Source: an uncultured Alphaproteobacteria bacterium (GTDB lineage Bacteria > Pseudomonadota > Alphaproteobacteria > Rs-D84). Taken from it: 64,000 nucleotides of DNA. Made by a program: the position numbers and the translations under genes. Location: NCBI GenBank assembly GCA_949156565.1, contig CASCZI010000001.1, forward strand, positions 118,856 through 182,855, read 5' to 3'. Numbering within the stretch: position 1 is the stretch's first letter; each line of letters begins with the position of its first letter. Below the pieces are notes generated by a model. The model had not been told where the DNA came from. It searched no databases and saw nothing but the letters and a program-made list of their open reading frames with translations. Below are positions 4,970-54,022 of this stretch, piece after piece.

Positions 4970-7369
<2,400 letters not shown>

Positions 7370-8443: not shown

Positions 8444-9514
8444 TTATACCAATGCGGCGGTAATTTGATCCTGCATCTGGAATGTGCCCAAGACGACCCA
8501 CGCAATGATCGCCGATACCAGTAAAATTCCCATTGAATTCATGACATTGGATATAGATTCCATTCGACGAATAGATTCGGCCAAATAATCATTGGCCACA
8601 CGTGACAAATTACGATCAAATTCGTTCATTTCTGCATAAATCGCCAAATCACCAATAATTTCGTCATCGGGGAAATCGCGCCCTGTTTTGATCAATGCCG
8701 CCCCCAGATTGTCCCCCCCCACGATATAGCGCAGGGCGGCATTTAAAATACTGCGTAAATAAGGGTTTGAATTGTCGGCCAACATACGCATGGCATCAAC
8801 CACCGTCACGCCCGATGCCACCATCGCCGATAATGACATCAACCATCCGACCGATGCCTGAATCTTATAAATGCGCCATGGGGGAAATTTATCAAATTTT
8901 GCCCGCAAACGCCCGGCCCAGTTCGGCAAACTAACCGTGATGACAATAACACCAATTACAAACGATGCCGTTAAAACAAACCAATAACGTGACGCCATAT
9001 CCGCCAACCAGATCAGTGATGCCGCCGATCCGCGCCATACGATACCGGGCCCCGCCGCATCGGCCAATGGTGGCACCAGATATAATCCCACCATAATAAT
9101 GATTCCCACCGTCAATGCCAACAAGAACAACGGATATGTAATGGCCGACATCATGGCCCGCTTGATCCGGCCCGTGCCATCAACAACACGTCCAACGTTT
9201 TCCAACGCCACCACCAAATTAGACAAATTTCCCGATGTCACCAATAATGTTTCATCCATCGGAACCCATCCACGTGTCGCCTCAGAAAAGGTCATCCCCC
9301 GTTCCAGGTTTTTTTGCCATTCGCGCATCACAATGGCAAATGGTTCATCCGGTTTGGCCCCCCCCTTAGATTCGATCATTTCAATTCGCCCCAGTGCATC
9401 CATCAACGTAAAATCATTCCGCAACAGGGACGCCAATTTTCGGCATACAGACATGCGGCGTCCGGTATTTAACCGAAAGGATAATTTCGCATAGAGTCGT
9501 TCAAGGCGTTCCAT
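8444..9514 (-). CDS. GspF/PilC-like (T2SS F-family) inner-membrane platform protein; PilR(R64)/BfpE/TcpE-like
   Basis: About 356-aa polytopic membrane protein with several hydrophobic segments. Immediately downstream of the GspE-like ATPase. Start moved to the internal ATG (MERLERLY) one nt after the ATPase stop. Confidence 0.55.
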   Translation of the reverse strand: MERLERLYAKLSFRLNTGRRMSVCRKLASLLRNDFTLMDALGRIEMIESKGGAKPDEPFAIVMREWQKNLERGMTFSEATRGWVPMDETLLVTSGNLSNLVVALENVGRVVDGTGRIKRAMMSAITYPLFLLALTVGIIIMVGLYLVPPLADAAGPGIVWRGSAASLIWLADMASRYWFVLTASFVIGVIVITVSLPNWAGRLRAKFDKFPPWRIYKIQASVGWLMSLSAMVASGVTVVDAMRMLADNSNPYLRSILNAALRYIVGGDNLGAALIKTGRDFPDDEIIGDLAIYAEMNEFDRNLSRVANDYLAESIRRMESISNVMNSMGILLVSAIIAWVVLGTFQMQDQITAALV

Positions 9515-9515
9515 C

Positions 9516-11141
9516 TTAATATACCCCCGGTTGATCCAACAATCCGACCCAACGTTCCAATTCATCCACCCCAATAATTCCCGACAGCATTAATTCCATC
9601 GCCGATTCTTTAAGGGTTCGTCCCCCCAGATTTTCCAGCCAATACCGCGCCGCGCCATCGGTATTTCCCGACAAGGCCATTTGTAAAAATTCAGAATTGG
9701 GAATGATAATTTCACCCGCCTTGATCCGCCCCAGCGTACCCGTCCCCCGGCATTCTTCGCACCCGGCCCCACGGATATACACCTGGCGCAGGCCCAATTC
9801 CCCAAACGCATCTTTGACCCGCCGATATGCCGGATGATTGGGATGATCGATCAAACGTTCCCGGCAATACGGACATAATTTCTTAAACAGACGCATCGAT
9901 ACCAAACCGCGCATCATTGTTTCTTCTTTTAGTTTGAACCCCTCTACCCCCATGTCCAGCAATCGCGTCAATGCCGCCATGGCAGAATTGGCGTGTAATG
10001 TGGTCCACACATTGTGTCCTGATAATGCCCCCTTAACCGTTAATTGCGCGGCCGACAACGTACGGATTTCCCCCACCATTAACGTATCGGGATCACTTCG
10101 CAGGGCGGCGGCCAGTGCCTCTGTAAACTTTTCTTCGCGCATTTCTTCGTTGGATGCATTGACAACCGGCATTTGATGCGCGCCAAAAATCTTTTGTTCC
10201 GCGGGATCTTCGACAGTAATCAGATTAATTTCATAATGTCGTTCTTTCAGCATTAACGACATGTTGCGAACCAACGTTGTGGATTTTCCCGAACTGGTTG
10301 GGCCGGCAACCACCACCAATCCCGTCGGAAAAGAGCGCAAACGCATCAACAGCTTTTGTTCATATTCGCCAAATTCTTGGGCGGTTTTGATCCCTTCGCT
10401 TGGGTTATCATAAAGCAGGCGCATCACCACATAACGTGATCCGAATGCGATGGGATTAAATTGCATACGTATCCCCAAAATCCCCACCGGCAGGTATAAA
10501 TCCTTGGTCCCACGCAGGGGTGTTCCCCCATCTTTCTGGGCCGATTGGTATTCATTTTGGGCATAATTCGAATTCGAAATATCGGCCGATGCAAATGCCG
10601 CCCGAACAAATGATTCCCCCCATTGTGAATTATATTCCAAGACGGGTTGCATACTGCCATCAATGCGGAAATAAATGGTGGTTTGATCGGCCACTTCTAT
10701 ATGAATATCCGATACTTTCTGGGCGGCGGCCTTGGCAATGATATCTACGAAATCTTTTTGCATTTGGTTGTCATAATCGCCACGGGCCGATCCATCACCC
10801 ATATGTTCCCGATAAATTTTATAAATGGCCGCAACCAAACCCAAATCGGCATAAAATGGTTCGCGCATGGGTCGATCTTGGGCGTGTAATAAATCCAAAA
10901 ACGCCAAGACCCGTCCATCATACCGATGGGTACGGGAAATGATAATTTGCCCCCCCGAAAAATACGCAATTAATCCCTGGGCATCGGGGGGTAATGCCAA
11001 CGCCCCGCCCGCCGCCGTCATCAATCGGTTATTATCCCCCAATAAAAAGTCGGCAATATCACGGTTTGATCCGGCCGCCACGGCGGGGGGAACCGATAAA
11101 TTTGATGTATCCTGCAATGATTTATTTTTATCCTGGGCCAT
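9516..11141 (-). CDS. GspE/PilB-family secretion/type IV pilus assembly ATPase
   Basis: Walker A GPTSSGKST. Asp box and His box present. Tetracysteine CPYC...CEEC. 541 aa with an N-terminal extension. Confidence 0.85.
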   Translation of the reverse strand: MAQDKNKSLQDTSNLSVPPAVAAGSNRDIADFLLGDNNRLMTAAGGALALPPDAQGLIAYFSGGQIIISRTHRYDGRVLAFLDLLHAQDRPMREPFYADLGLVAAIYKIYREHMGDGSARGDYDNQMQKDFVDIIAKAAAQKVSDIHIEVADQTTIYFRIDGSMQPVLEYNSQWGESFVRAAFASADISNSNYAQNEYQSAQKDGGTPLRGTKDLYLPVGILGIRMQFNPIAFGSRYVVMRLLYDNPSEGIKTAQEFGEYEQKLLMRLRSFPTGLVVVAGPTSSGKSTTLVRNMSLMLKERHYEINLITVEDPAEQKIFGAHQMPVVNASNEEMREEKFTEALAAALRSDPDTLMVGEIRTLSAAQLTVKGALSGHNVWTTLHANSAMAALTRLLDMGVEGFKLKEETMMRGLVSMRLFKKLCPYCRERLIDHPNHPAYRRVKDAFGELGLRQVYIRGAGCEECRGTGTLGRIKAGEIIIPNSEFLQMALSGNTDGAARYWLENLGGRTLKESAMELMLSGIIGVDELERWVGLLDQPGVY

Positions 11142-11145
11142 GGGT

Positions 11146-11883
11146 TTAATTTGCGCCCCCGATGTTTAAATGCTGTTGATTGCCATCGCGTTCAAATACA
11201 ACCCCATCATCAAGAGATATGGCCCGCACCGTATATCCATCCAATGTTTTTCCCACAGAAATACGCCGCTGTTGCCCGTTATTTAAATCTTCGATTGTGG
11301 CGGCCAATTGGTTGCCGGCCCCAATGACATTTACCAAACGCCACCGCGTGGCAATGGAATCAATGGCATCAGAATCATCGTTTTGGGCCACAGATGTCGT
11401 GACCGGCATTGGGGCCGGTGCATTTGCCATGGCCGATACTTCGCGGGCCAGACGTTCTTTTTCCGCACCTAAACGGGCGGCTTCGGCCTCTAACTTGGCT
11501 TTTTGAACCTCGAATTCTTGTTGCTGTTGTTCGGCACGGCCGGACAAAGTGTCTAATTCCATTTGTAATTTAATTTTTTCTGCCGCCAGGCGATTTAATT
11601 CCAAATCCAATTGGGCCCGTTCTTTTTCCAATTGCATGACCACTTTTTCTTGTTCAAGTGTGGTGATTTGATCGAACAACGACCCATCCACGTCATAGGA
11701 TGCAATGGCGTCGGCCGCAACTTGTTCCATGATATCATCTTCGGTTGTGACCATATCTGGGACGGAATCAACATCGATGGTTTCAACCATATCAATGTCG
11801 ACATCCGCCATGGCCGGTATGACCGGTAAAAACATTGCCATACACACCATCACCCACATCAGATTACGGATTTTATTTCGCAT
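11146..11883 (-). CDS. Periplasmic coiled-coil protein, PilP/GspC-like candidate
   Basis: N-terminal signal/TM segment, an acidic stretch, a long coiled coil (LEQEKVVMQLEKERAQLDLELNRL...), and a C-terminal beta-rich domain. Confidence 0.35.
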   Translation of the reverse strand: MRNKIRNLMWVMVCMAMFLPVIPAMADVDIDMVETIDVDSVPDMVTTEDDIMEQVAADAIASYDVDGSLFDQITTLEQEKVVMQLEKERAQLDLELNRLAAEKIKLQMELDTLSGRAEQQQQEFEVQKAKLEAEAARLGAEKERLAREVSAMANAPAPMPVTTSVAQNDDSDAIDSIATRWRLVNVIGAGNQLAATIEDLNNGQQRRISVGKTLDGYTVRAISLDDGVVFERDGNQQHLNIGGAN

Positions 11884-13174
11884 AGATTATCACCTCATAG
11901 TTCCAGGTTCTGTTGCCGGCATTCCAAACGCATCGCGTCATATAGACACCGGAAAATTCATCAAAGATACGCATAAACGCCATGGGCGTCAATTTTGATG
12001 ATGCCGCAATTTCAACAACCGATAAATGCGCGGTGTCGACCCCATTACTTAACGTATCGATTACAATGTTGGTATCGACCGGGGTTGCGATCTGTTGAAA
12101 GGCGGTGGTTACATCACGCACAATGGTATCGGCATCGCGTTCATCCAATGATGCGCCGGTCCCCAATTGGGGTAACCGCGCCCGCACCGATATCGCCGAA
12201 TCCGAATTTTCAACCACATACGCCCCGGGCATTAAATCACCCGCCACCGCATAAAATTCACCCAATGTGCCAAACGTGCGCGTGAACATGACCGATGCGT
12301 ATTCTTCGCCACATTCAACCGATGTCTGGGTCCATCCCAAAACCGGTTGCATTAAAAATCCCATCGCGTTAAAGCATACCTGGGCCCGGGCCATGGGATC
12401 GGGTAAATGATCATACGGCATAACCAATGGTGGTGGGGGCGTTGGTTTTTGAATATCAAATTGAACATCTAATTCTTGGTTTTTTTGTTCAATCTGACGC
12501 TTGTACTCGGCGGCCAGTTCGGGATTGATCGTCGAAACCTGGGGACGGGGGGATACCATTTCCGCAATCGGCACCCGAAAAAAGTAAAGCAATACATAAA
12601 TAAATCCCCCAATCAGCGCCGCCGACAAAATATTGGCGCGCACACGACTGATCATATGCAAAATGCCCCGATTGCGACCGGCCATAATATCGTCAATACG
12701 ACGTTCCACCGCGCGTGGCATGGCCCATGATTCTGGGGCAAAGAATGCACCCCAATCAGGAATCTGGGCCAATTCAACATAACGATCGCGCGCCACAGCT
12801 TCGTCATTAAATAATTTATCTTCTAAAATAATGCCGTTACGAACCGCCACCAGGTAATAGCCGCCCGTCACCCGAAACACCGCCAAAAATGATGAAAATT
12901 CCCCGAATGCATCCACAACACCGGCCGCGGCCGATGCCATGCCGGCGCGGATCCCCCCCTGATGTGGGGCCAATCCAATCATTGAACGATATTCGGTATA
13001 AAGGGTATATTTCTTGTCAATACCACGTGCCAATTGACGCGCATAATTGCGTGGGGTATATCCAACACCCATCGGCTGCCACAGCAGGCCAACGGCGTAT
13101 TTGCGACGACCAATTGAAATATACTGATATGTCACACGGCATCTCTCTCTGATGTTAAATGAATTATAACACAT
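11873..13174 (-). CDS. Bitopic assembly protein, PilO(R64)/BfpC/GspL-like candidate
   Basis: About 430 aa with a single central TM helix (ILSAALIGGFIYVLLYFF). Position and size match pilO in the R64 pilO-P-Q-R order. Start uncertain: the ORF-track start is TTG. Confidence 0.35.
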   Translation of the reverse strand: MCYNSFNIRERCRVTYQYISIGRRKYAVGLLWQPMGVGYTPRNYARQLARGIDKKYTLYTEYRSMIGLAPHQGGIRAGMASAAAGVVDAFGEFSSFLAVFRVTGGYYLVAVRNGIILEDKLFNDEAVARDRYVELAQIPDWGAFFAPESWAMPRAVERRIDDIMAGRNRGILHMISRVRANILSAALIGGFIYVLLYFFRVPIAEMVSPRPQVSTINPELAAEYKRQIEQKNQELDVQFDIQKPTPPPPLVMPYDHLPDPMARAQVCFNAMGFLMQPVLGWTQTSVECGEEYASVMFTRTFGTLGEFYAVAGDLMPGAYVVENSDSAISVRARLPQLGTGASLDERDADTIVRDVTTAFQQIATPVDTNIVIDTLSNGVDTAHLSVVEIAASSKLTPMAFMRIFDEFSGVYMTRCVWNAGNRTWNYEVIIYAK

Positions 13175-13313
13175 TTTGATCGTGAAACGCAAACACAGAA
13201 TATTGTCCCCATCGATTAAAACGTAAATTTAAAACAGGTGGGCCATTGATGCCTGATCTTTGGGAAATCAAGGATTTATAAAAATTCAGGAATCCGATGG
13301 ATTCCTGAGATAA

Positions 13314-20978: not shown

Positions 20979-21604
20979 TTATCCGCCATACACCGTTTTA
21001 ATCGGGTGCCGTCATCGTGGGCATCAATATCTTTGTTCTTGATTTCTTCGTTGGCACGTATGCGGCGACGCATTAAAATTAATTCTGGATGATCTTGTAA
21101 CCGTTTATTTAATTCATCCAATGCCGCATCAATATTTCCATTCAAAGGGACAAAGACGGGCATAACCGTTCGGGCCGCGTGATCAATGGCCGCCAAAATA
21201 TCGTCATGCATATCATCAATCACCGATAAATAGGCGCGAATATGTGAATCTTCGTGTGATAAAATGGCATCATAGGCGCATGTCCCCCGTGCATGCCGTG
21301 AATCAATTTGGACCAAAAAATCATTATACCCAATCGTTGCATCCACAGATTTTAACGCGACACAATACCCATCTTCGATCGGGGTCACATCACCCGTAAT
21401 GTCGTAATTATCAACCAACGTGGCCATTACATTTCCATGCAATAGATCCATCGGCTTTAACGGTTGAACCACCGATTTTTGCCATTGGGGGGCGGTCATG
21501 GTCACCCGAGGGGATATTTTATAGACCACACAATCATCCGCGCCATGGGCCGATATTATTATGCCCATTACCGCCCAAAACAAAAGAAACGAATACCGGA
21601 TCAC
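20975..21604 (-). CDS. Secreted protein with HExxH motif (putative small Zn-dependent peptidase, DUF922-like)
   Basis: Signal peptide. HEDSH motif. ATGA overlap with the virB4 stop implies co-transcription. Confidence 0.45.
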   Translation of the reverse strand: MIRYSFLLFWAVMGIIISAHGADDCVVYKISPRVTMTAPQWQKSVVQPLKPMDLLHGNVMATLVDNYDITGDVTPIEDGYCVALKSVDATIGYNDFLVQIDSRHARGTCAYDAILSHEDSHIRAYLSVIDDMHDDILAAIDHAARTVMPVFVPLNGNIDAALDELNKRLQDHPELILMRRRIRANEEIKNKDIDAHDDGTRLKRCMADN

Positions 21605-24012
21605 AGATCGCCTGCCCCTTGCTGTTTTAAATATTCGGCGACAAAGGCATTTCCATATTGTTTATACAATTCTTCGGCCAAAAGAACCGACGAACGTCCC
21701 GATTCAAATAAACGCAATAACGGACCCAATCCACCCAGTTCGGTATTCAAAATCACCGATTCCCCAGATACCGGCCGTGACAACAATACCGCACGTTTTA
21801 AATGGGGATAGGCACGACCCTGAATAAATGCCATTTCCAAAGGATTTAAATTCCAATGTTCATAATCACGGGCATCGGCCGCAGGATTGCGGAAAAACAA
21901 GATGGTTTGTGCCTGGCCACGGACAACATCACCGATACCCAATTTATCCAATACATTTGCCCGTTGAAATGCGACCATGTATGCCTGGCGGTTTTTACGC
22001 CCTTCTTGCAGACCCGTGATAAAATTATCCCGAAACATTTTATTTTCCAACATGGGTGCCGTTTCATCAATCATGATCAAAGACGGATTTCCCCCGGCCA
22101 CAGTTATGTTATTAATCCGATGCAAGATATATGAAATCACCGCCGGCGCCAAAATAGGGTCTTGTAATATTTCGGTAAAATCAAATGTGGTTAATCGCGC
22201 GCCCAGATCCAACGTATCTGATTCTTCGTTAAAGATATCACCATATTGCAATGGATCAACCCACTTTTTCAATGCCGGCCGCATGGGACCGGTTGCGGAA
22301 AAACAGCTTTGCCATAAATTTTTAAGCAATCGATCCCGCATATCCAGGTAATCGAAATTAACCGACACGGCCCGGGCAATTTCATCCGCCGACGCAGGAT
22401 CATCAACACCTGTTATAATTGAAAACCATCGACGTAAAAACGCGCGGTTGGCAACCGTATCGGACATTTTCAATGGATTCAGATGGGTTTGAAAACTGAT
22501 CCCATCGGTTTTATCCCGTCCCTGCATGGTGATGTATTTGCCCCCCACGGATAATGTAAAGATTTCTGCCCCTTTGTTGCGATCAAAAAAGAAGGCTTTT
22601 AATTTCTGATGACGCATGGCCTGGGCGATAAGGAATGAAAATAATGTCGTTTTTCCCCCACCCGTTGGCCCGATGGTTAATGTGTGACCGACCGCCGCCG
22701 GGGCATCGGATACATGAAATTGAAATTGATAGGGGGTACCCTGGGCCGTGGGGAATACAACCAATGGTCCCGGACCCCAATCCGAATTTTCAACACCTGT
22801 CGGTTGGGTTGACATCGGAATACTGATCGCGGCGGTGCGCGATAACATCTTAAAACTGCGTGGGAAAATATCAAATCCTGGGATTTGTGAAAACCATGAT
22901 ACTTTGGATGCAAAATCTTCGACAATGGGGGATACACCATATGCGGCACAAATCTTTTTAACATCATCAATACTTTTGCCCAATGCATCCCGTGTTGCCC
23001 CAAATACCAAGAACAAGGGATAATAACTAACCAGATTTTGTGTTCCCGATATATTTTCATCCATGGCCCCACGGGCGGCCGAAATTTGTTCTTCGGTCGT
23101 GTCATTGTTTTCATCGGCCGTGGCACGCCGTTGACGGATAACACTTTCCACGGCCGACGCCCCCAGGATATTAAATCCATTCATACAGATCATTTCTGTC
23201 TGTAATGTCGCCATTTCATCAAAAAATTCTTCGTCCAGAAAATCGGGTGATACCTTAAACGATACCAATGCCGCAAATGATTGTTCCCCACCACTGACAT
23301 ATTTTACCAACCCATCGTCGGTGAAGACTACATCATCAACCGTCACCAAATCTGCCATTTGATTATCACATTTTCGCGGGGATGGTTTCGTGATCGGGGA
23401 CAAAATGCGTCCAAAAAATTTCGCCATGTTGTCTGAACTATTATTTTCCAGAACACGGACCCCATACGGGGCCAACACAGATTCAATATAATTACCATAT
23501 TGGTTCAATTTATCCCGCGCACCGTTACCCGATACTGTTAAAACAATGTAATAATTGTTTAAAAAGATACGCAATCCCTGGCTGTGCCATTTGTCATATA
23601 TTTTTTGCAAAACCGGTTGATCAAATTCATAATCATTTTCTTGGACCGCGGCATTGCGAATGGTAAAAAACCGCAATGTGGCGTTGGGATCCCGAATTTG
23701 ATTAAACAAAGACGCCCGTAAATCCAGAAATTTTTCCCGGGTTTTATCGTCTTGCATGCTGGATTGGACACCATGAACGCGATAAACACGCACCAACGCC
23801 CCATTGGTCAATTCAATCGAATTATCGTCAAACACACGGCGAAATGGCAAATAATCCGCATATTTTTTATATCCAAATTTGGGAAATACCCACCGGGTTA
23901 ATACCGGGACATATGCCATCATCAACGCAAAAACCACAACCACCGCCATGGCCAACACCACCAGTGTGAGGGGAAATCCATTGCCTGCGAAATAATTAAA
24001 AATATCATTCAT
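21601..24012 (-). CDS. virB4: Type IV secretion system ATPase VirB4/TrbE family
   Basis: 803 aa. N-terminal TM segment. Walker A GPTGGGKTT. Walker B IMIDE. Confidence 0.85.
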   Translation of the reverse strand: MNDIFNYFAGNGFPLTLVVLAMAVVVVFALMMAYVPVLTRWVFPKFGYKKYADYLPFRRVFDDNSIELTNGALVRVYRVHGVQSSMQDDKTREKFLDLRASLFNQIRDPNATLRFFTIRNAAVQENDYEFDQPVLQKIYDKWHSQGLRIFLNNYYIVLTVSGNGARDKLNQYGNYIESVLAPYGVRVLENNSSDNMAKFFGRILSPITKPSPRKCDNQMADLVTVDDVVFTDDGLVKYVSGGEQSFAALVSFKVSPDFLDEEFFDEMATLQTEMICMNGFNILGASAVESVIRQRRATADENNDTTEEQISAARGAMDENISGTQNLVSYYPLFLVFGATRDALGKSIDDVKKICAAYGVSPIVEDFASKVSWFSQIPGFDIFPRSFKMLSRTAAISIPMSTQPTGVENSDWGPGPLVVFPTAQGTPYQFQFHVSDAPAAVGHTLTIGPTGGGKTTLFSFLIAQAMRHQKLKAFFFDRNKGAEIFTLSVGGKYITMQGRDKTDGISFQTHLNPLKMSDTVANRAFLRRWFSIITGVDDPASADEIARAVSVNFDYLDMRDRLLKNLWQSCFSATGPMRPALKKWVDPLQYGDIFNEESDTLDLGARLTTFDFTEILQDPILAPAVISYILHRINNITVAGGNPSLIMIDETAPMLENKMFRDNFITGLQEGRKNRQAYMVAFQRANVLDKLGIGDVVRGQAQTILFFRNPAADARDYEHWNLNPLEMAFIQGRAYPHLKRAVLLSRPVSGESVILNTELGGLGPLLRLFESGRSSVLLAEELYKQYGNAFVAEYLKQQGAGDL

Positions 24013-44118: not shown

Positions 44119-46668
44119 TTACCCAAACAGGTTTAATTCCGGGGCATTGCCGGATTTCTTTTCTGAAACCCCCGTTGGGTTTCCCGTGTGCGGGGTGGTT
44201 TGGGTATGGGTTGTGACAAACCGATTGGATGTTTCCAGATCATCCAAGACCGCCGTGGCGCGATTAATAACCGTGTCGGGCATGCCGGCCATTTTGGCCA
44301 CGTGGATACCGTACGACCGACTGGCGACGCCGGGAATAATCTTGTGCATAAAGATGATTTCGTTATTATGTTCACGCACATCGATGGTTAAACACTGGGC
44401 ATTATTTAATTTGCCCGGACCATCGCCGACACGCGTCGTCAATTCATGATAATGGGTTGCAAACAGTGTTCGTGGCTTTAATTCATTTAAAAATTCCAAG
44501 ACCGCCGTTGCAATGGCCATTCCATCGTATGTCGCCGTGCCACGTCCAATTTCATCAAAGATGATAAAAGATTGCGGCGATGCCCGGTTTAAAATGTTGG
44601 CGGTTTCGGTCATTTCAACCATAAATGTGGATTGGCCCGCCGCCAGATTGTCGGACGCGCCAACGCGACTAAACAATTGGTCACAAATACCAATATTGGC
44701 CGTGTCGGCCGGCACAAATGATCCCAAATGGGCCAATACCACCAACAATGCATTTTGACGCAAATATGTGGATTTTCCCGCCATATTCGGCCCGGTCAAG
44801 ACCGCAACCGTGCGATCGTTGAGATGACAATCGTTTTTCACAAAATTGTCCCCCACCCCGCGCAGGGCACATTCAATAACCGGATGGCGTCCGCCGCGGA
44901 TGTCAAATGCCGTATCGTCGGTTACCGATGGCCGAACCCATGAAAACACCTGGGCACATTCGGCCAATGCATACCATACGTCGGCATCGGCAATTAAATC
45001 TGCGGTTTCCATCAAATTGTTGGAAATCATGCATATATCACTGATTAATCCGGCGACAATTTCGTTTTCGATGGCGGCGGCCTTTTCTGCGGCAGCGCGA
45101 ATGTCGTTATCCAAATCAATCAGGCGTGTTGTCGTAAATCGCATGTTTCCGGCCATCGTTTGGCGATGGATAAATCCGTTTTCTGGTTTCATCATGATTT
45201 CAGATTTTGATGATGGCACCTCTATAAAATATCCCAAGATATTGTTATATTTGATTTTAAGCGTTGATATCCCCGTTTGGGTGGCGTATTCTGCTTGAAG
45301 TGCGGCGATCGTTTCCCGCCCCCCATGTGATAGCCCCCGCATATTATCCAATGCCACGTCATATCCCGTCCGAATGACACCCCCGTCACGAAAGAATGTG
45401 GGTAATTCATCGGCCAAAGCAAAGCGTAATTTACCGGTTAATTCTTCGTGTGGATTAATCTTTTCAAATTGTGATGCCAACGGCCCATCCAAACGTGATC
45501 CAATCCGAACAATGGACGGCAATGCCACCATAAAATTAACCACCCGCCGCAGGTCGCCCGGCGTTCCCCGCCCCAATTGCAGGCGCGACAACGCGCGTCC
45601 CACATCCGGGATTTTGGATAATGATTGGGCCAACCCCCCCATGACATCGGGGTTTAATATCAAATGACCAATATGTTCTTGGCGGCGGCGAATTTCGCCC
45701 ACATCCGCCGACAGCGTTCGCATATATGCCCGCATGCGCCGGGCACCCGCCGCGGTTTTTGTGCGATCCAATACATCCATTAAACACATTCCACCGTCAT
45801 TGATGGGCGCATCGATTTCCAAACTTTTCCATGTGGCATAATCGATCAATAATTGCCGACCCGATTTAAACAAGTAAGGGGCCCGGAATGCAATTTTGGC
45901 ATCACGTTGTGTGTTAAACAAATACCCTGCCAACAACGGCACTGCACCCCATGGGGCATCATCACGACGTTTGCCATCGTCGGGAATATCCACCGATTGA
46001 CCAAAAACACGGGATACAATCTGGCCGATATCGGTCCGGTTATAGAGTTTTTCATAAACCGCCGTGGTTTTAAATGCATCGCGAATGGATGCGACATACC
46101 CATCTTCGGCCGCAGATTCGGGATAAATCACTTCGGCGGGGGAAATGCGAACCAAATCGTCCATGGCCTTGTCGGTGTGACCAATAAAAAATTCACCCGT
46201 CGATATGTCGCAACCGGCAATGTCGAACATGCCGCGTGCGCCCGTTACCGGAACCATTGCCACCAGAAAATTTGATGTTTTGGGTGTCAACAGGCTTTCA
46301 TCTGTTAATGTACCGGGTGTTAAAACACGAATAACCTTGCGTTCAATATATTTATGGCCGCGGGCCTTGGCCTCGGCCGGGGTTTCCATTTGTTCGACCA
46401 ATGCCACCTTGTACCCGGCACGGACCAGACGCCCGAAATAGTTATCGGCGGCATGCCATGGAATACCACACATGGGAATGTCAATGCCATTGGCATCTGT
46501 CCCGCGTGATGTTAGCACCAGGCTTAACGCACGGCTAATCTCTTTGGCGTCGTCAAAAAACGCCTCATAAAAATCACCCAGACGAAACATTAATAATGCA
46601 TCTGGATTTTCGGCCTTCATGTCAACATACTGTTGCATAACCGGACTTAGTTTATTTTTATCTGCCAT
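44119..46668 (-). CDS. mutS: DNA mismatch repair protein MutS
   Basis: N-terminal mismatch-binding domain (PVMQQY...GDFYE). Walker A GPNMAGKST. Start placed at MADKNKLSP. Confidence 0.9.
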   Translation of the reverse strand: MADKNKLSPVMQQYVDMKAENPDALLMFRLGDFYEAFFDDAKEISRALSLVLTSRGTDANGIDIPMCGIPWHAADNYFGRLVRAGYKVALVEQMETPAEAKARGHKYIERKVIRVLTPGTLTDESLLTPKTSNFLVAMVPVTGARGMFDIAGCDISTGEFFIGHTDKAMDDLVRISPAEVIYPESAAEDGYVASIRDAFKTTAVYEKLYNRTDIGQIVSRVFGQSVDIPDDGKRRDDAPWGAVPLLAGYLFNTQRDAKIAFRAPYLFKSGRQLLIDYATWKSLEIDAPINDGGMCLMDVLDRTKTAAGARRMRAYMRTLSADVGEIRRRQEHIGHLILNPDVMGGLAQSLSKIPDVGRALSRLQLGRGTPGDLRRVVNFMVALPSIVRIGSRLDGPLASQFEKINPHEELTGKLRFALADELPTFFRDGGVIRTGYDVALDNMRGLSHGGRETIAALQAEYATQTGISTLKIKYNNILGYFIEVPSSKSEIMMKPENGFIHRQTMAGNMRFTTTRLIDLDNDIRAAAEKAAAIENEIVAGLISDICMISNNLMETADLIADADVWYALAECAQVFSWVRPSVTDDTAFDIRGGRHPVIECALRGVGDNFVKNDCHLNDRTVAVLTGPNMAGKSTYLRQNALLVVLAHLGSFVPADTANIGICDQLFSRVGASDNLAAGQSTFMVEMTETANILNRASPQSFIIFDEIGRGTATYDGMAIATAVLEFLNELKPRTLFATHYHELTTRVGDGPGKLNNAQCLTIDVREHNNEIIFMHKIIPGVASRSYGIHVAKMAGMPDTVINRATAVLDDLETSNRFVTTHTQTTPHTGNPTGVSEKKSGNAPELNLFG

Positions 46669-46690
46669 TTTTACACCAACCTGGTTTATA

Positions 46691-46894
46691 TTATTCTGCG
46701 TTGCCAACTTTAAGAGTTTCGATTTTTAATTCGGCTTCTTTCAACAGTTGCTCGCAATAGGCCTTTAGTTTAATCCCCTGTTCATAGGCCGCAACAGATT
46801 CCGCCAGGGGCATTTCCCCAGATTCCATTTTACGCACCAATTCGGTTAGTTGTTTATACGCATCTTCGAATGACAATTTTTCTTGATTTTCCAT
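46691..46894 (-). CDS. xseB: Exodeoxyribonuclease VII small subunit
   Basis: 67-aa helical protein (SFEDAYKQLTELVRKMESGEMPLAESVAAYEQG), typical of XseB. Confidence 0.7.
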   Translation of the reverse strand: MENQEKLSFEDAYKQLTELVRKMESGEMPLAESVAAYEQGIKLKAYCEQLLKEAELKIETLKVGNAE

Positions 46895-46964
46895 GAATTT
46901 CCCTTTTCCTATTTGCCGGAAATCAGCATACAAGAATATAAATAAAAAATCAAATCAAAGATAT

Positions 46965-46999
46965 AAAAAAATGCCGGGAAAACCCGGCAATTGTTTTTT
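46965..46999. terminator. Bidirectional terminator (xseB / mreB)
   Basis: TGCCGGG-aaaa-CCCGGCA flanked by A and T runs. Confidence 0.6.
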
Positions 47000-47004
47000 C
47001 GTGA

Positions 47005-48081
<1,077 letters not shown>

Positions 48082-48178
48082 TCACTATAAAACGTGTGCA
48101 AAAAAAAATCAAGGGCACACTTTCATAAAATCATGCTTTTTTATTTGATTCTGTGAATATTTTGGTATTATAGCCGTT

Positions 48179-48520
48179 ATGCGTGATACCATAAAAAAAC
48201 ATACTGATTTTATTGCCGCCGACACAGATGTGACGGCGCGCGCCGCCGGGTTTATTATTCGGGCCCGTCCCACACGTTTTGCCGATGGGGGGCGATATGG
48301 TCTGGTGACGACAAAGCGGACATTTCGCCATGCGGTTGATCGTAATCGCGCACGCCGCCGGTTACGGGCATGGATTGGGGCATGTGAAAAAATGTTAAAG
48401 CCCGGCTGGGATTACATATTTATTGCGCGGCCATCCATTCTCAATTGGTCCCATACAGATGCCATGGTCGCCATGGGCAAGGCGTTACATTACCTGTCGC
48501 ATCAAAAAAAATCGGTATAA
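48179..48520 (+). CDS. rnpA: Ribonuclease P protein component
   Basis: Basic 113-aa protein with the RNR motif region ([11 protein letters not shown]). No rpmH upstream. Confidence 0.8.
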
Positions 48521-48524
48521 CCCA

Positions 48525-48782
48525 ATGACAACATCGCCCTCTTCTTTGTCATATTCCCCGAACTTGGCACGACGCGGGGCCATAAAGTTGGTTCGTTTAT
48601 ACCAAATTCTGATTTCCCCCCTTATTGGCGGGCGTGCCGCATGTCGTTTTACCCCCAGTTGCAGTGAATATACCCGGATCGCCATTGAAAAGTATGGGTT
48701 GCGTCGTGGGATATTGATGGGATTGCGGCGGATTGCGCGGTGTCGGCCCGGTGGGGGTATGGGATATGACCCTGTGCCTTGA
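48525..48782 (+). CDS. yidD: Membrane protein insertion efficiency factor YidD
   Basis: Conserved [10 protein letters not shown] motif. Internal ATG placed after the rnpA stop. Confidence 0.75.
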
Positions 48783-48858
48783 CATCTGGGTCCATTGTGG
48801 TAAAATTCGCCATAACGAAGAAACAAATTTGACAACAAAAATCAAAAGGAAAGAAGCT

Positions 48859-49302
48859 ATGTCATTTCGTACAACCGTAGAATCTATGTCCAAAATTATG
48901 GATGAAATGGGCATTACGGAATTGGATTTGGAACGCCAATTCTTGTTTGGCGTTTACCGCAAACATATTCATTTATCAAAGCAACAGATGGCCGCGGCCC
49001 CGGTGGCGGCCGTTGCATCGGTCGGGACGGTGCCCAGTGCCCCCAAATCTGATGCGGCCCCGATTACAGGATACGTATTGAAATCCCCGATGGTGGGTGT
49101 TGCCTATTTGGCACCCGAACCCGGGGCCAAGCCGTTTGTCACCGTTGGCGCATCGGTCAAATCGGGTGACACGGTTGCCTTGGTCGAAGCGATGAAGACG
49201 TTTAACCCCATCAAATCAGACAAAGATGGCGTGGTCAAAGAAATTTTGGTTACCGACGGCCAGGCGGTTGAATATGACCAACCATTAATTGTGATTGAAT
49301 AA
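48859..49302 (+). CDS. accB: Biotin carboxyl carrier protein of acetyl-CoA carboxylase
   Basis: Biotinyl-lysine motif EAMKT. Ala/Pro linker. RBS AAGGAAAGAAG. Confidence 0.85.
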   Translation: MSFRTTVESMSKIMDEMGITELDLERQFLFGVYRKHIHLSKQQMAAAPVAAVASVGTVPSAPKSDAAPITGYVLKSPMVGVAYLAPEPGAKPFVTVGASVKSGDTVALVEAMKTFNPIKSDKDGVVKEILVTDGQAVEYDQPLIVIE

Positions 49303-49316
49303 ACGGGGGCGCCATC

Positions 49317-50795
49317 ATGCCACAGATAAAGAAAGTTTTAATTGCCAATCGCGGTGAAATTGCCCTGCGTATTATTCGGGCATGCCGGGACATGGGGATA
49401 CGCACGGTTGCGGTTTATTCCACGGTGGATAAAAACGCCATGCATGTTCAATTGGCCGATGAATCGGTCTGTATTGGGCCGGGCCCGTCCAAGGATTCAT
49501 ACCTGAATGAATCGGCGATTTTGACGGCGGCATTATTAACCAATTCCGATGCAATTCACCCGGGATATGGGTTTTTGTCGGAACGGGCCGATTTTGTGCG
49601 TAAGGTCGAAGAACACAAATTAATTTGGATTGGGCCGTCGGCCGCCATGATTGAAAAAATGGGGGACAAGGTTAACGCCAAACGGACCGCGATTGAATGT
49701 GGATTACCGGTGGTACCGGGGTCTGACGGGGCGGTTGATACATTGGACGATGCGTATGCGTGGGCGGAAAAAATTGGATATCCGGTCATGCTAAAGGCGT
49801 CGGCCGGCGGCGGTGGTCGTGGGATGCGCCCGGTTATGGATGCCACCCAAATGGCCGAAGCGTTCCAAATAACCAAGCAAGAGGCAAAATCTGGATTTGG
49901 TGACGATACCCTGTATATGGAAAAACTGTTGTTGCATCCCCGCCATATTGAATTTCAGGTGTTGGGTGATCAACACGGTGGCGTGGTGATTTTTGGTGAA
50001 CGTGATTGTTCCCTGCAGCGGAAAAATCAGAAAGTTATGGAAGAATGCCCGGCGGCCGCATTAACGCAAAAGCAGCGTGATGACATGATAGAGGTATGTA
50101 AAACCGCCGCCAAAAAGATGGGATACACCAACGCGGGTACATTTGAATTTATGTTCGAAGATGGAAAATTCTATTTCCTTGAAATGAATACCCGGCTTCA
50201 GGTGGAACATCCGGTGACCGAAATGGTTTATGGCATCGATTTGGTTCGTGAACAAATTCGCATTGCCGCGGGCGAAAAATTGGGTTATACCCAATCAAAT
50301 GTTATTGCCCATGGGCATGCCATTGAATTTCGTATTAATGCCGAAGATCCGGAAAACTTTATCCCCAATCCGGGTAAAATCACACTTTATGCGCCATCGG
50401 GTGGTTTGGGGGTTCGTGTGGACAGTGCGGTTTACACCGGATACACGATTCCGCCGACATACGATTCAATGATTGCCAAATTGGTTGTGCATGCACAAAA
50501 TCGGCCGGCATGTATTATGCGGGCGGCGCGGGCATTGGATGAATTTGTGATCGAAGGGGTAAAAACAACCATTCCGTTACAGAAAAAATTGCTTAATAAT
50601 CGGGATGTTAAAACATTAAATGTGGATAACCATTGGCTCGAAGGGTATTTAAAATCGGCCGCGGCCGATCAGGGTGCGACGTCGACATCTGATGAACAAT
50701 CGGAAAACGATATCGTGACAACGCCAGAGTCAGATGGTGGGGCAAAAAAGAAAACCGCGAAAAAAACGGTTCATAAAAAACCCCGGAAAAAGTAA
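49317..50795 (+). CDS. accC: Biotin carboxylase
   Basis: ATP-grasp fold. N-terminus KVLIANRGEIALR. 492 aa with a Lys-rich tail. Confidence 0.9.
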   Translation: MPQIKKVLIANRGEIALRIIRACRDMGIRTVAVYSTVDKNAMHVQLADESVCIGPGPSKDSYLNESAILTAALLTNSDAIHPGYGFLSERADFVRKVEEHKLIWIGPSAAMIEKMGDKVNAKRTAIECGLPVVPGSDGAVDTLDDAYAWAEKIGYPVMLKASAGGGGRGMRPVMDATQMAEAFQITKQEAKSGFGDDTLYMEKLLLHPRHIEFQVLGDQHGGVVIFGERDCSLQRKNQKVMEECPAAALTQKQRDDMIEVCKTAAKKMGYTNAGTFEFMFEDGKFYFLEMNTRLQVEHPVTEMVYGIDLVREQIRIAAGEKLGYTQSNVIAHGHAIEFRINAEDPENFIPNPGKITLYAPSGGLGVRVDSAVYTGYTIPPTYDSMIAKLVVHAQNRPACIMRAARALDEFVIEGVKTTIPLQKKLLNNRDVKTLNVDNHWLEGYLKSAAADQGATSTSDEQSENDIVTTPESDGGAKKKTAKKTVHKKPRKK

Positions 50796-50797
50796 TT

Positions 50798-50824
50798 AAC
50801 GCCCCCCATGGGGGCGTTTTTTTG
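50798..50824 (+). terminator. Rho-independent terminator after accC
   Basis: CGCCCCCC-atg-GGGGGCG followed by T8. Confidence 0.6.
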
Positions 50825-50908
50825 GCAAATAATGATTTTTATCAATGATTCCCGTGATGAAAATATAAATACCCCCGAGGTATGGGAATTAAATATAATA
50901 TGAACACC

Positions 50909-51643
50909 CTATTCCATGCGATATGTTGTGTTACCGATGCGAACATGGATTCCCGTCCCAGATTCGGTGGTTAAATTGCCGTAACAGATGCCGCCTGGTA
51001 TTTTAACAACAATTGCCGGGGATGTATGGCGCGATGCATATAATGGGGCCGTGACGGTGCCCATATGAATTTGCGTCACGCCCGCGGCGCACAAGGGTTG
51101 ACATGTATCCCCGACGCGCCCGTATCCATCGTCACATTCCCATGGGCAATTTGATTCTATTGCACCCACGCTGGACGGGGTTGAATATGATGTATAATGG
51201 GCATGCGCGGGGCCGTTTGTGCATGGCGCACATTGATCGTACCACGGTCCCCAGAGATAATGACTGGCGTAATAACCGGGACGACAATCAATATATTGAT
51301 GATATTGAATGCCACCCGGCCCTTCGATACAGGGACGTTCATATTGATACCATGTCCGCGTGTCATCAGAATAGTCCCAGTTACAAATACAATGTTTGGC
51401 CGCTGTGGCGTGGGGGGAATCCCATTCCCCGTCCACAGATGTATAAACCCGGGCCAAATGTGAATCATTATCCAGATCCCAACAGGAATAGCGTATATCA
51501 TCCCCGGGACAATAATGTTTTGCGCCGCAATCCGTGCATTTGTTATTTGCCAAATAATATCCCGGATCACACGTTGCGGCCAACCCTGGTAAAACCGGCA
51601 AAACCAAAACAGCCCCCAAAAACCCGACAGTTTTTTTAGGCAT
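50909..51643 (-). CDS. Secreted cysteine-rich protein with two ephrin-receptor-like CxPGYY...CxxC repeats
   Basis: Signal peptide MPKKTVGFLGAVLVLPVLPGLAA. CDPGYYLANNKCTDCGAKHYCPG and CRPGYYASHY...CAPCTNG. About 22 Cys. Possible paralogue of 3534..3989. Confidence 0.5.
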   Translation of the reverse strand: MPKKTVGFLGAVLVLPVLPGLAATCDPGYYLANNKCTDCGAKHYCPGDDIRYSCWDLDNDSHLARVYTSVDGEWDSPHATAAKHCICNWDYSDDTRTWYQYERPCIEGPGGIQYHQYIDCRPGYYASHYLWGPWYDQCAPCTNGPAHAHYTSYSTPSSVGAIESNCPWECDDGYGRVGDTCQPLCAAGVTQIHMGTVTAPLYASRHTSPAIVVKIPGGICYGNLTTESGTGIHVRIGNTTYRME

Positions 51644-51712
51644 AGTCCCAATATTAAAAATCCCGGATTTCTGCGACAAATTTTCCCCCCAACTATGCCT
51701 AAAAAAACTGTC
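51626..51712. repeat. Perfect 21-bp inverted repeat (GACAGTTTTTTTAGGCATAGT) bracketing a 45-bp spacer
   Basis: Arms at 51626-51646 and 51692-51712. Each arm contains an ATG plus six identical codons (MPKKTV). A third partial copy lies at 51721-51732. Confidence 0.7.
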
Positions 51713-52253
51713 CCTTTGGATTAGGCATAGTCAAATCACGTTCAACCCCAGGAATTATACCCGTTTGCACGATTTTATGCAAGCGGGAAAATTTGGGGAC
51801 CGGGGACAAGGGTTCGCCGCCCGTACATCTAGGCCTAAACAATTATAAAAAGACCACCCCGTCGGTATCACCCCCAAAAATTTTCAATTTTTGCGGGGCC
51901 CGATTGCGCGTCCACCCCGACCCCGGGCCCTGTGGAAATTGTTAAATTTCCATGGGTGGGTTCTGGCGGGGGAACTTCTCTCTGTTCTTAAATTCCACAC
52001 CTCGGGCACCCATGTGGGATAGTTTAAAAAAAAGACCACCCCGGGCTTCGCCCACCCCTCCACCGGAGGGGAACTTTGCAACGGCGTGGCACAAAGACAA
52101 GTTCTCCTCCTGTGGAGGAGTACCGGCGTAGCCGGGGAGGTGGTATTTATCTAAACTCTGAAAACCGATCTGATGTGGGGTAACGGGGATTATTACCCCC
52201 CCTGCCCCAATGGATTGGTTTTTGATAAAAAAACGCCGGGAAAGCCCGGCATT

Positions 52254-53135
52254 TTATGAACACAATTTTTCGATGATTTTTTCCATTTCACGACGGGAAT
52301 GAAACCGAATATGGATTTCACCTGCGCCGTTGCGCCGCCGCAGAATTTTTATATCTGAATCGAAAAATTGACGGGCCGATTTATCCAATGTTGCCCACAT
52401 TTCGTCATTGTCGGTGTCGTCATTTCGGTGGGCACGTGCGCCGGATGCCCGTTGGGTGCGATGAACGCGGGCCTGGGTATCGGCAACCGTCAATTTCTTT
52501 TCGATAATTTCATTGGCCAATTCGGTCGGATTTTCCGCCACGGCAATTGTACGGGCATGTGATGCAGATATGCGGCCGGATTCCACCATGTCTTTGACCG
52601 TATCCGGTAATGCATCCAATCGCATGATATTGCGGATATAGCTGACCGATTTGCCAATCAAACGGGAAACATCATCCAAACTGTACCCGCATTTATCCAT
52701 AATATTTTTATAGGCGGCGCCTTCTTCGATCGGGTTCAGGTTTTCCCGTTGAACATTTTCAATCAGTGCGATTTCCATCGCGTTTTCTGGGGTCAATTCT
52801 TTGACCAACGCGGGAATTTCGTTGCAACCGGCCATCTTGCTGGCGCGGTAACGACGTTCGCCGGCCACAATTTCGTATTGGTAATCACGTCCCACGACCG
52901 CACGTAATAATATAGGCTGTAACACGCCTTGGGCGCGAATAGATGATGCCAGATCGTCCAACTGGGCCGGGTCAAATGTTTTTCGGGGCTGATCCGGGTT
53001 AACGCCAATCTGAACCAATGGAATTTGTCGTACCGCCACGCGGTCTGTGCCACGCAGGATAGAAATGTCGGGGATGTTCCCCATTTCTGCCTTGATATCC
53101 GCCAAACCACGCCCCAGACCAAATTTCTGCGCCAT
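52254..53135 (-). CDS. parB: Chromosome partitioning protein ParB
   Basis: ParB/Spo0J box (GERRYRA) and HTH. Confidence 0.9.
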   Translation of the reverse strand: MAQKFGLGRGLADIKAEMGNIPDISILRGTDRVAVRQIPLVQIGVNPDQPRKTFDPAQLDDLASSIRAQGVLQPILLRAVVGRDYQYEIVAGERRYRASKMAGCNEIPALVKELTPENAMEIALIENVQRENLNPIEEGAAYKNIMDKCGYSLDDVSRLIGKSVSYIRNIMRLDALPDTVKDMVESGRISASHARTIAVAENPTELANEIIEKKLTVADTQARVHRTQRASGARAHRNDDTDNDEMWATLDKSARQFFDSDIKILRRRNGAGEIHIRFHSRREMEKIIEKLCS

Positions 53136-53137
53136 TG

Positions 53138-53911
53138 TTATTCTCCTTGTTCTGTTTTTTGAATGATTTCGGTCGCCACCCGCAAATAGGCCTGGGCACC
53201 GGTGGAATGAAAATCATAAAACAATGCCGGTTTGCCGTGACTGGGGGCTTCGGATACACGAACGTTACGCGGGACAACGGTTTGAAAAACACGGTCGCCA
53301 AATGTAGATCGCACCTCGTCTTCGACCGCACGGGTTAATCCATAACGCCGGTCATACATTGTTAATAAGACACCCAAGATATTTAAATCCGGGTTCCATG
53401 ATTTTTGTACCTCTGAAATTGTGTTGATTAAATGTTGAACCCCTTCGAGGGCAAAAAATTCGCACTGTAATGGAATAATGATCGATGTGGCCGCCGTTAA
53501 CGCGTTTAATGTTAAATATCCCAATGCCGGCGGACAATCCAACAAGATATAATCATAATGGTCGGCAATCATGGCCAACGCATCACGCAACCGATATTCC
53601 CGGTTATCCATGTCCAGCAATTCCACCTCTGCCCCCGAAAGAGCTGGGCTGGACGGCATAATGTGCATGTTGGGTACCGATGTTGTTAAAATGTTGTCCG
53701 CCGCACGCGCCGTTCCCATAATAACGCCATAGGCACTTTGTTGATGTGCGGCCCGCACAAAGCCCATGCCTGTACCGGCGTTTCCCTGGGGGTCAAGGTC
53801 AATTAACAGAACCCGCCGTTTGGCCGCCGCCAGTGACGCGCCAATATTGATCGCTGTGGTGGTTTTGCCCACCCCGCCCTTTTGATTTGCAAATGCAATA
53901 ATCCGTGCCAT
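53138..53911 (-). CDS. parA: Chromosome partitioning ATPase ParA
   Basis: Deviant Walker A KGGVGKTT. Confidence 0.9.
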   Translation of the reverse strand: MARIIAFANQKGGVGKTTTAINIGASLAAAKRRVLLIDLDPQGNAGTGMGFVRAAHQQSAYGVIMGTARAADNILTTSVPNMHIMPSSPALSGAEVELLDMDNREYRLRDALAMIADHYDYILLDCPPALGYLTLNALTAATSIIIPLQCEFFALEGVQHLINTISEVQKSWNPDLNILGVLLTMYDRRYGLTRAVEDEVRSTFGDRVFQTVVPRNVRVSEAPSHGKPALFYDFHSTGAQAYLRVATEIIQKTEQGE

Positions 53912-54022
53912 GCGTGTTTATCCCCCTTTGGATTTATATTAAAAGCATAAAAAAACCGGGAAACAGTGTCAAGTTATTAAAATGATAAATATAAAAATAA
54001 TGTTATTACAACGAATTATGCT

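Follow-up and report, generated by a model that had tools for sequence, protein, structure and literature searches.

The DNA analysed here, called the window, is a stretch of 64,000 nucleotides from an uncultured alphaproteobacterium of the GTDB lineage Rs-D84 (GenBank assembly GCA_949156565.1, contig CASCZI010000001.1, positions 118,856 to 182,855). At the start of a minus-strand gene coding for a secreted cysteine-rich protein, it contains a perfect 21-bp inverted repeat enclosing a 45-bp spacer. The resulting 87-bp unit (21 + 45 + 21 bp) is found in opposite orientations at the same locus in different assemblies, and a ribosome binding site (RBS) and a start codon carried by the spacer face the gene in one orientation only. 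The unit is therefore read, with a probability of roughly 70%, as a DNA-inversion (phase-variation) switch acting on translation initiation of the secreted protein. The features of the locus are listed below in the direction of the gene.

51754 to 51782, minus strand: predicted promoter P1, made up of TTGCAT (51782-51777), 17 nt and TATAAT (51759-51754), upstream of all three copies of the repeat.
51713 to 51731, minus strand: box1, ACTATGCCTAATCCAAAGG, the outer half of the left boundary site, overlapping the third copy of the repeat at 51721-51732.
51699 to 51728, minus strand: 9-codon upstream open reading frame (ORF), MPNPKGQFF*, which starts in box1 and has its stop codon within the left arm.
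51699 to 51724, minus strand: proposed left crossover site, CTAATCCAAAGG-GA-CAGTTTTTTTAG, of 12, 2 and 12 bp; the perfect repeat begins exactly at its core.
51692 to 51712, no strand assigned: left arm of the perfect 21-bp inverted repeat, 5'-untranslated region (5'-UTR) in the sense of the gene.
51647 to 51691, no strand assigned: 45-bp invertible spacer, facing the gene in the window and providing GGGGGG, TTG and the codons for SQKSGIFNIG.
51626 to 51646, no strand assigned: right arm of the 21-bp inverted repeat, coding for T-M-P-K-K-T-V in the putative ON frame.
51614 to 51639, minus strand: proposed right crossover site, CTAAAAAAACTG-TC-GGGTTTTTGGGG, inside the region coding for the signal peptide.
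50909 to 51679, minus strand: gene for the cysteine-rich secreted protein, 256 aa from TTG or 244 aa from the ATG at 51643.

The arms consist of GACAGTTTTTTTAGGCATAGT, read on the plus strand at 51626-51646, and its exact reverse complement at 51692-51712. Within the window these are the only copies of the 21-mer, even when up to 3 mismatches are allowed, and no match to a 21-bp repeat was obtained from 100 dinucleotide-preserving shuffles, so that none is expected by chance. An earlier note on this DNA had described the arms, the spacer, a third partial copy and a plus-strand stub, MPKKTVPLD*. All of them were recovered, the third copy as an exact match of 12 nt (TTAGGCATAGTC, 51721-51732) and the stub at 51695-51724. 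The length of 245 aa given there for the protein needs correction: 244 aa are obtained from the ATG of the right arm (51643-51641), which is the start annotated in the databases (P0001, L143). The ORF, however, remains open upstream of this codon as far as the TTG at 51679-51677, from which it encodes 256 aa.

The inversion of the unit is documented by comparison with other assemblies. The same locus was reached, by exact-protein look-up, in the ENA assembly ERZ27269772 (L143), where the gene order is that of the window (rsmG-parA-parB-switch-gene-accC-accB-rnpA) and the identity is 99.06% over 5.7 kb. There the arms are identical to those of the window and the 45-bp spacer is the exact reverse complement, otherwise unchanged; the 100 bp upstream differ at about 10 positions. 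BLAST aligns the 87-bp unit of L143 to the window at 100% identity, with its flanks aligning on the other strand. Identical arms around an exactly reverse-complemented spacer indicate that the segment inverts. A second sequence, the Logan contig L001 (run ERR13249040), is 100% identical to the window over 1151 nt and begins two bases before the arm; these bases, 'ca' in place of the 'gg' of the window, correspond to the L143 orientation. A third, L005 (GCA_948993165.1), is 100% identical over 6.4 kb and has the orientation of the window over its 27 spacer bases, although it may not be independent of the window. Both orientations are thus found at one locus, the window and L005 on one side, L143 and L001 on the other, and the 87-bp unit inverts precisely between near-identical strains. 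Among the interpretations put forward in the earlier note, the one supported by these comparisons is that DNA inversion at this site varies a secreted protein.

Two other signals were considered and rejected. Contig 1 of GCA_948993165.1 (L002) could have been taken for a rearrangement breakpoint at the right arm; what lies there is an N-gap, and the sequence beyond it, 94.6% identical, is a paralogous locus (geneY) carrying its own copy of the switch. The ends of contigs L001 and L005 at the switch could have been taken for mixed orientations within a sample; they are accounted for by k-mers shared between the geneX and geneY leaders, the k-mer sums at the two ends being 2+21+8 = 31 and 27+21+7 = 55.

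The spacer holds the only sequence resembling a Shine-Dalgarno element, GGGGGG (51690-51685), located 5 nt upstream of the TTG; no such element precedes the arm ATG. In the sense of the gene, the spacer of the window reads tGGGGGGaaaatTTG TCG CAG AAA TCC GGG ATT TTT AAT ATT GGG, and its frame continues through the right arm (ACT ATG CCT AAA AAA ACT GTC) into the signal peptide. Other genes of the window usually have GGGGG or AAGGA 5-9 nt ahead of the start codon, as in mreB (cGGGGGaaaaatATG). GGGGGG-aaaat-TTG faces the gene in frame solely in the orientation of the window; in that of L143 the arm is preceded by the C-rich ttttcccccca, with no Shine-Dalgarno sequence. The arms themselves contain no RBS, which corrects the account of the earlier note.

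The spacer could alternatively be seen as an invertible promoter, in which TTGTCG-17-TAATAT fires at the gene in the orientation of the window and gives a nearly leaderless mRNA starting translation at the arm ATG. Hexamers and spacing are readable, with a predicted transcription start at about 51645-51643. The promoter scan, however, did not report this element, each hexamer matches at only 4 of 6 positions, and what related spacers conserve is the Shine-Dalgarno sequence and start codon, not the hexamers; a strong, conserved predicted promoter is, moreover, already located upstream. This explanation is considered very improbable, and the least likely of those examined.

The upstream promoter in question is P1. 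Its layout, TTGnnA-17-TATAAT, spacer sequence included, also precedes related loci and scores 10/12 in three of them, and P1 is accordingly regarded as the probable promoter of the gene. Downstream of it, the 19-mer of box1 is found at the same position in 14/14 leaders compared, with at most 4 substitutions, all in the last 7 bases. The distance from ATG to TAG of the upstream ORF is 27 nt in 7/10 leaders; this 9-codon ORF may encode a leader peptide, or may simply result from the way the repeat is laid out.

With P1 upstream of both arms, both are probably transcribed, and folding of the predicted leader RNA becomes relevant to the suggestion, made in the earlier note, of a translational lock. 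In its RNA-only form, this explanation holds that the arms make a 21-bp leader stem hiding the start, that melting or processing of the stem (by translation of the upstream ORF, RNase III or temperature) provides control, and that inversion of the spacer is incidental. The predicted leader structure is stable (minimum free energy (MFE) -48.1 kcal/mol, z = -2.97), and the arm ATG is buried in it in both orientations, with a probability of being unpaired of 0.00. An alternative pairing, of 11 nt between box1 and the left arm, would produce a three-segment layout similar to that of attenuators. These features, like the conserved position of the promoter, speak for a lock. Against it, the RBS lies outside the arms. 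In the orientation of the window the Shine-Dalgarno sequence and the TTG start are predicted to be mostly exposed (unpaired probabilities 0.64 and 0.56). The leader hairpin, in addition, does not correspond to a described regulatory RNA: in the comparison with Rfam covariance models only tRNAs reached the gathering score, and in a sensitive scan the hairpin matched microRNA precursor models far below threshold, at the level of hairpin noise. An RNA-only lock, finally, leaves unexplained the exact inversion in a strain 99% identical. The in-frame Shine-Dalgarno sequence and start codon in one orientation, together with the unpaired probabilities, are the grounds on which the window would represent the ON state and L143 the OFF state.

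The inversion switch was further evaluated on related loci. The upstream DNA was taken from paralogues (L006/L007, L008 and L148), from two other genome lineages found by a DNA pattern scan (L011-L014) and from homologues (L145-L147). A second, unrelated protein family (geneY) has the same N-termini as the family of the window protein. The loci have a common architecture: a TTGnnA-17-TATAAT promoter, a leader of about 22 nt, box1, an inverted copy of the gene-start sequence, a spacer and box3. The distance between box1 and box3 is 84-85 nt at all loci, and the unit measures 87 bp whether the arms are of 8 or 21 bp (8+71+8 or 21+45+21). Changes in the inverted copy are matched in box3, in at least 7 sequence versions. 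This architecture is kept at 12 distinct loci, and at a further one whose repeat has decayed, from at least 3 genome lineages and two protein families; co-varying arms in a constant geometry speak against the neutral duplication scar that the earlier note had offered as an alternative.

Six loci in the L143-like orientation were inverted in silico between their own longest perfect arms, with the following results.

P0017 (L006), arms of 19 bp: in-frame Shine-Dalgarno sequence and start.
P0018 (L008), arms of 14 bp: in-frame Shine-Dalgarno sequence and start.
L013-2, arms of 13 bp: in-frame Shine-Dalgarno sequence and start; before the flip, the ATG of box3 is out of frame.
L014-1, arms of 8 bp: in-frame start, (M)RISGIFILGLLSYANVGLFSTPAHA, with a GTG start codon.
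P0020 (L145), arms of 8 bp: in-frame start, MQKYGIFILGLLSYANVGLYAASA followed by ATCD.
P0033 (L147), arms of 11 bp: in-frame start, MRKSGIFILGILLYPNVGLGAA followed by LHYG.

The flip thus yields an in-frame Shine-Dalgarno sequence and start codon at 6/6 loci, and on this in silico evidence the orientation would alter the expression or coding of the adjacent gene at the window locus and at these six others. For P0020, P0033 and L014-1, whose annotated proteins have no hydrophobic core, it also creates what are predicted to be canonical-looking signal peptides. At L013-2, where the arm ATG is out of frame, the gene is translatable only when flipped. An intact Shine-Dalgarno sequence, start, frame and signal-peptide-like sequence on the 'wrong' strand would be hard to explain unless they are sometimes used.

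The same loci bear on the RNA-only lock. Co-variation between the arms would be a point in its favour, but is equally expected of recombination sites. Relatives with arms of 8-11 bp, in which no long stem is possible, nevertheless keep an intact, oppositely oriented segment with RBS, start and signal peptide, that is the logic of the switch, and at L013-2 the arm ATG is out of frame. Of the lock, what stands is the predicted upstream promoter, the probable transcription of both arms and the predicted burial of the arm ATG; as the sole mechanism it is judged unlikely.

A subordinate function of the stem can be accommodated within the inversion switch. The 21-bp arms of the window are the longest perfect repeat in the class of loci having the RBS in the spacer. 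At the window locus and at P0017 the switch precedes the part coding for the hydrophobic core of the signal peptide, and loci with the core inside the switch have short arms. With the core downstream, leaky initiation at the arm ATG would still yield a secreted protein, and the long stem may serve to silence the arm ATG in the OFF state; P0018, with arms of 14 bp, fits this idea only in part. The RNA hairpin is probably no more than an aid to a tight OFF state.

Four related loci (L011, L012, L013-1 and L014-2) constitute a different class. They have their own Shine-Dalgarno sequence and ATG downstream of box3, and their spacers contain no start signals. Pairing of box1 with the inverted copy gives a hairpin with a stem of 13-15 bp and a loop of 6 nt, directly followed by a U-tract within the invertible segment, so that a terminator-like site is predicted in the leader at 4/4 loci. 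In the reverse complement of these spacers the U-tract would give way to a purine-rich sequence. At the switch of the window, the left arm is followed by no U-tract, whichever way the spacer faces. A T-run after the right arm was considered as a terminator tail and rejected, being at several loci part of the extended repeat (outer half-site).

The remaining alternative accepts the inversion and denies it a function: the repeat would be a duplication scar, and its loop would be flipped back and forth by template switching or intramolecular recombination, independently of a recombinase and with no selected regulatory role. Recombinase-independent inversion, a process seen for hairpin loops in organelle DNA, could plausibly use a perfect 21-bp repeat around a 45-bp loop; the failure to find a recombinase nearby, in a crude regex and Pfam search, and the distance of 85 bp, awkward for recombinases, also speak for it. 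The relatives argue otherwise. The design and its 87-bp geometry are preserved across the lineages and in both protein families; on the opposite strand, unused translation signals, frame and signal-peptide-like sequence would decay, yet they are intact. The loci with 8-bp arms are poor substrates for homology and still keep dyad sites with matched cores, and a second payload, the terminator U-tract, is found on the same sites. A non-programmed flip-flop is consequently rated improbable, marginally more so than the RNA-only lock, though for the long perfect repeat of the window itself a recombinase-independent route keeps some probability.

Such dyad sites are found at both boundaries of the unit, and suggest that a site-specific recombinase acts there. 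They can be described as half-sites of 12 bp around a 2-bp core (for example left CTAATCCAAAGG-GA-CGTTTGGATACA, right CTAATCCAAACG-TC-GGTTTGGGTGCG). The left and right core dinucleotides are reverse-complementary at 13/14 loci, or at 14/14 after shifting the register of L013-2 by 1 nt by hand; in the window the left core, GA, is the reverse complement of the right one, TC. The perfect repeat starts at the core in 9/10 loci with the RBS in the spacer, the exception being the decayed L148. The consensus of the half-sites is C-T-A-A-T-C-C-A-A-A-[CG]-[GC].

Altogether, the switch would operate as follows. The invertible unit, of which the arms are the ends, extends from the 5'-UTR into the first codons of the gene, and P1, located upstream, would transcribe through it in either orientation. 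In the ON state, that of the window, GGGGGG-aaaat-TTG would be displayed in a loop of the leader RNA, and translation would start at TTG 51679 and proceed through the right arm into the signal peptide. In the OFF state, that of L143 and L001, the RBS and start codon would point away from the gene, leaving as sole in-frame start the ATG of the right arm, which has no Shine-Dalgarno sequence and would be hidden in the 21-bp stem. The two states would accordingly be expected to differ in protein output. In relatives the switch would also govern the presence of the signal-peptide core, or of a terminator in the leader. We infer that inversion is frequent and programmed; a serine invertase, with its gene in another part of the genome, may be the recombinase.

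Several points weigh against this interpretation. The orientation evidence comes from comparisons between assemblies, and one of the three independent observations consists of two bases. The promoter, the terminators and the signal peptides are predicted features. Being paralogues, the related loci do not give fully independent in-frame results. The sites of the window fit the 12-2-12 scheme less well than those of its relatives, their A- and T-tracts being shifted outwards by 1 nt. A crude search, in which all ORFs of at least 100-120 aa were screened with two sequence regexes and 20 window ORFs with Pfam, yielded no serine or tyrosine recombinase in the window and no recombinase gene beside the related loci, nor any serine-recombinase motif at either. 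Finally, the site centres are about 85 bp apart, and looping of so short a segment by an enzyme is a real difficulty; to our knowledge, it is shorter than any programmed invertible segment. For Hin, the protein HU helps to form a loop of about 100 bp, the smallest cited for that enzyme, which makes a tight loop not unthinkable.

In Mgla_MAG_4-bin_5, a gene for a XerC-like tyrosine recombinase (L014, 1844-2764, minus strand; 292 bits against a XerC cut-off of 335) is convergent to a switch-controlled gene; it is probably the housekeeping xerC.

Among known systems, the element most likely belongs with phase variation by DNA inversion and, in current terms, would be a partial intergenic inverton. 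It shares with the invertons that overlap gene starts (Chanin et al., PMC10028968; Milman et al., PMC9881135) the inverted repeats, of which one is coding and the other upstream, a segment found in both orientations, an orientation-dependent product, and the association with a surface or secreted protein of gut bacteria. It differs from them in its size of 87 bp, in flipping the RBS, the start and the first signal-peptide codons in place of a promoter or an alternative domain, and in having no partner gene on the opposite strand. The screen of Milman et al. was based on repeats of at least 22 bp linked to pairs of coding sequences (CDS) on opposing strands (PMC9881135); with repeats of 21 bp and no opposing CDS, the element of the window falls outside these limits.

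In the cwpV switch of Clostridioides difficile (Emerson et al. 2009, PMC2784873), too, the promoter is upstream and outside the invertible region, the repeats are of 21 bp and control follows transcription initiation. The OFF state proposed for cwpV resembles the four terminator-class relatives, with a hairpin at the left junction and a U-tract inside the invertible segment; the switch of the window does not share this arrangement. The cwpV region is of 195 bp, includes no part of the ORF and has a known recombinase, RecV. The unit of the window flips translation signals rather than a terminator.

The boundary sites recall those of Hin, Gin, Cin and Pin, the Din family: both can be read as 26-bp sites with inverted 12-bp half-sites, a 2-bp core matched between partners and, in the relatives, the inner sequence AAAC-N-NN-N-GTTT; the core GA is also that of gix. 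The half-sites CTAATCCAAACC and TATCAAAAAACC resemble TTATCCAAAACC and TTATCAAAAACC of the Din family, whose published sites include hixL, TTCTTGAAAACC-AA-GGTTTTTGATAA, and gix, ...AAACC-GA-GGTTTTGGATAA. In comparison with the Din half-site consensus, TTC----AAAC- (PMC3241671, Table 3), the inner AAAC/GTTT is matched in relatives and displaced by 1 nt in the window, while the outer TTC/GAA is unmatched. Din segments are far larger (about 1.1 kb from hixL to hixR and about 3.2 kb from gixL to gixR, by GenBank coordinates). In that family the invertase gene lies within or next to the segment, and Hin works with a 65-bp enhancer bound by Fis. An invertase gene in or beside a segment of hundreds to thousands of base pairs, with a Fis-bound enhancer, is not what is seen around the 87-bp segment; the sites of the window are also 1 nt longer per half. 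The resemblance is taken as a lead, not as membership.

The vpma/Xer1 system of Mycoplasma (PMC2268961) and the mba system of Ureaplasma (PMC3047005) likewise concern secreted or surface proteins encoded by a multigene family, the 5' region being highly conserved and the sites lying in or near the 5' ends of the genes. In those systems larger inversions bring a single promoter or N-terminal expression site to different genes; here, each locus has its own promoter and flips its own 87-bp unit alone. What sets the element apart is its very small size, the flipped payload, the lack of a recombinase found in its vicinity and the absence of a partner gene.

A broader proposal, attractive but on balance not quite favoured, is that uncultured gut alphaproteobacteria possess a family of 'micro-invertons': units of about 85 bp with Hin/Gin-like 12-2-12 sites, a recombinase acting in trans and a modular payload, either the RBS, start codon and signal-peptide core or the U-tract of a leader terminator, distributed over many unlinked genes for secreted cysteine-rich proteins and mostly OFF. 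If so, their loop would be shorter than in any known programmed inversion, and many database proteins starting with MPNPN, MPNLN or MPKKTV would be mis-started annotations of the OFF state. More generally, if the inversion is programmed, the short distance between site centres would challenge ideas on the minimum loop synapsed by a recombinase, the payload of inversion would extend from promoters to translation-initiation signals and signal-peptide cores, and the host range of phase variation to an uncultured gut alphaproteobacterial lineage. Published inverton screens, such as that of Milman et al., would then be able to miss a whole class, and gene callers would systematically mis-annotate OFF-state gene starts.

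Many database proteins, belonging to both families, start with MPNPN, MPNLN or MPNPK (P0003, P0015, P0017, P0020, P0021, P0023-P0025, P0027, P0029 and P0033), and a number of them have no hydrophobic signal-peptide core. For P0020 and P0033, whose DNA was checked, the annotated starts look like gene calls made on a switch in the OFF state; the other core-less entries probably have the same origin.

Two related loci deviate from the common scheme. At L148 (GCA_948993165.1 contig 2, about 3-6 kb left of the window start), the paralogue P0027 has the module with RBS and start facing away from the gene, a decayed inverted repeat with no perfect arm of 7 bp or more, and the signal-peptide core downstream of the arm ATG; this copy may be locked or expressed in another way. 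At L013, about 6470-6610 (minus strand), both arms have an A6 tract where the window has A7, which puts the arm ATG out of frame; the tract could be a slippage-prone site adding a second layer of variation.

The protein encoded by the window gene has 27 homologues, many annotated as starting with MPKKTVGF, MPNLN.GF or MPNPN.GL. A signal peptide ending between ...PGLA and ATC is predicted, as judged by eye from the sequence. Pfam returned no family for the protein, its AlphaFold model is weak (pLDDT 65.5), and the best folds in the Protein Data Bank (PDB) are cysteine-rich domains of the TNF-receptor type, non-significant at E values of at least 0.5. A protein search with the ON-state N-terminus gave no candidates, and look-ups of the 256-aa form and of P0012 returned nothing. 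A metagenome scan with an 18-mer from the spacer core, CAGAAATCCGGGATTTTT, produced more than 120 unrelated matches and no family member. The contigs matched (L034, L042, L050, L061 and others) include two recurrent human-gut sequence families and a repeat with the conserved flank '...gataaagtgc' in samples Ga0056131, Ga0056132 and Ga0209681.

The gene is flanked by parB (52254-53135, minus strand) and, in convergent orientation, by accC (49317-50795, plus strand). The cumulative GC skew has its minimum at about 46-50 kb (window 46000-54000), and the locus is next to rsmG-parA-parB and near rnpA and yidD; the switch is therefore probably close to the replication origin. Elsewhere in the window, a cluster with T2SS-F, T2SS-E and PilO-like genes, similar to a type IVb pilus system, is found at 8444-13192 and a VirB4/TrbE-like gene at 21601-24012, both unrelated to the switch as far as seen.

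The region of about 520 bp between parB and the switch (51733-52253) is a repeated module, also present upstream of paralogues (L002, 4057-4584; L006, 2747-2950; L008, 5810-5925), with an identity of 94.6% to that of geneY and of 81-88% for pieces found elsewhere. In scaffold CARIEI010000001.1 it falls on an N-gap and a duplicated stretch, and in GCA_949738905.1 on the end of a contig. It holds direct repeats of AAAAAGACCACCCCG, at 51847 and 52029, along with small hairpins.

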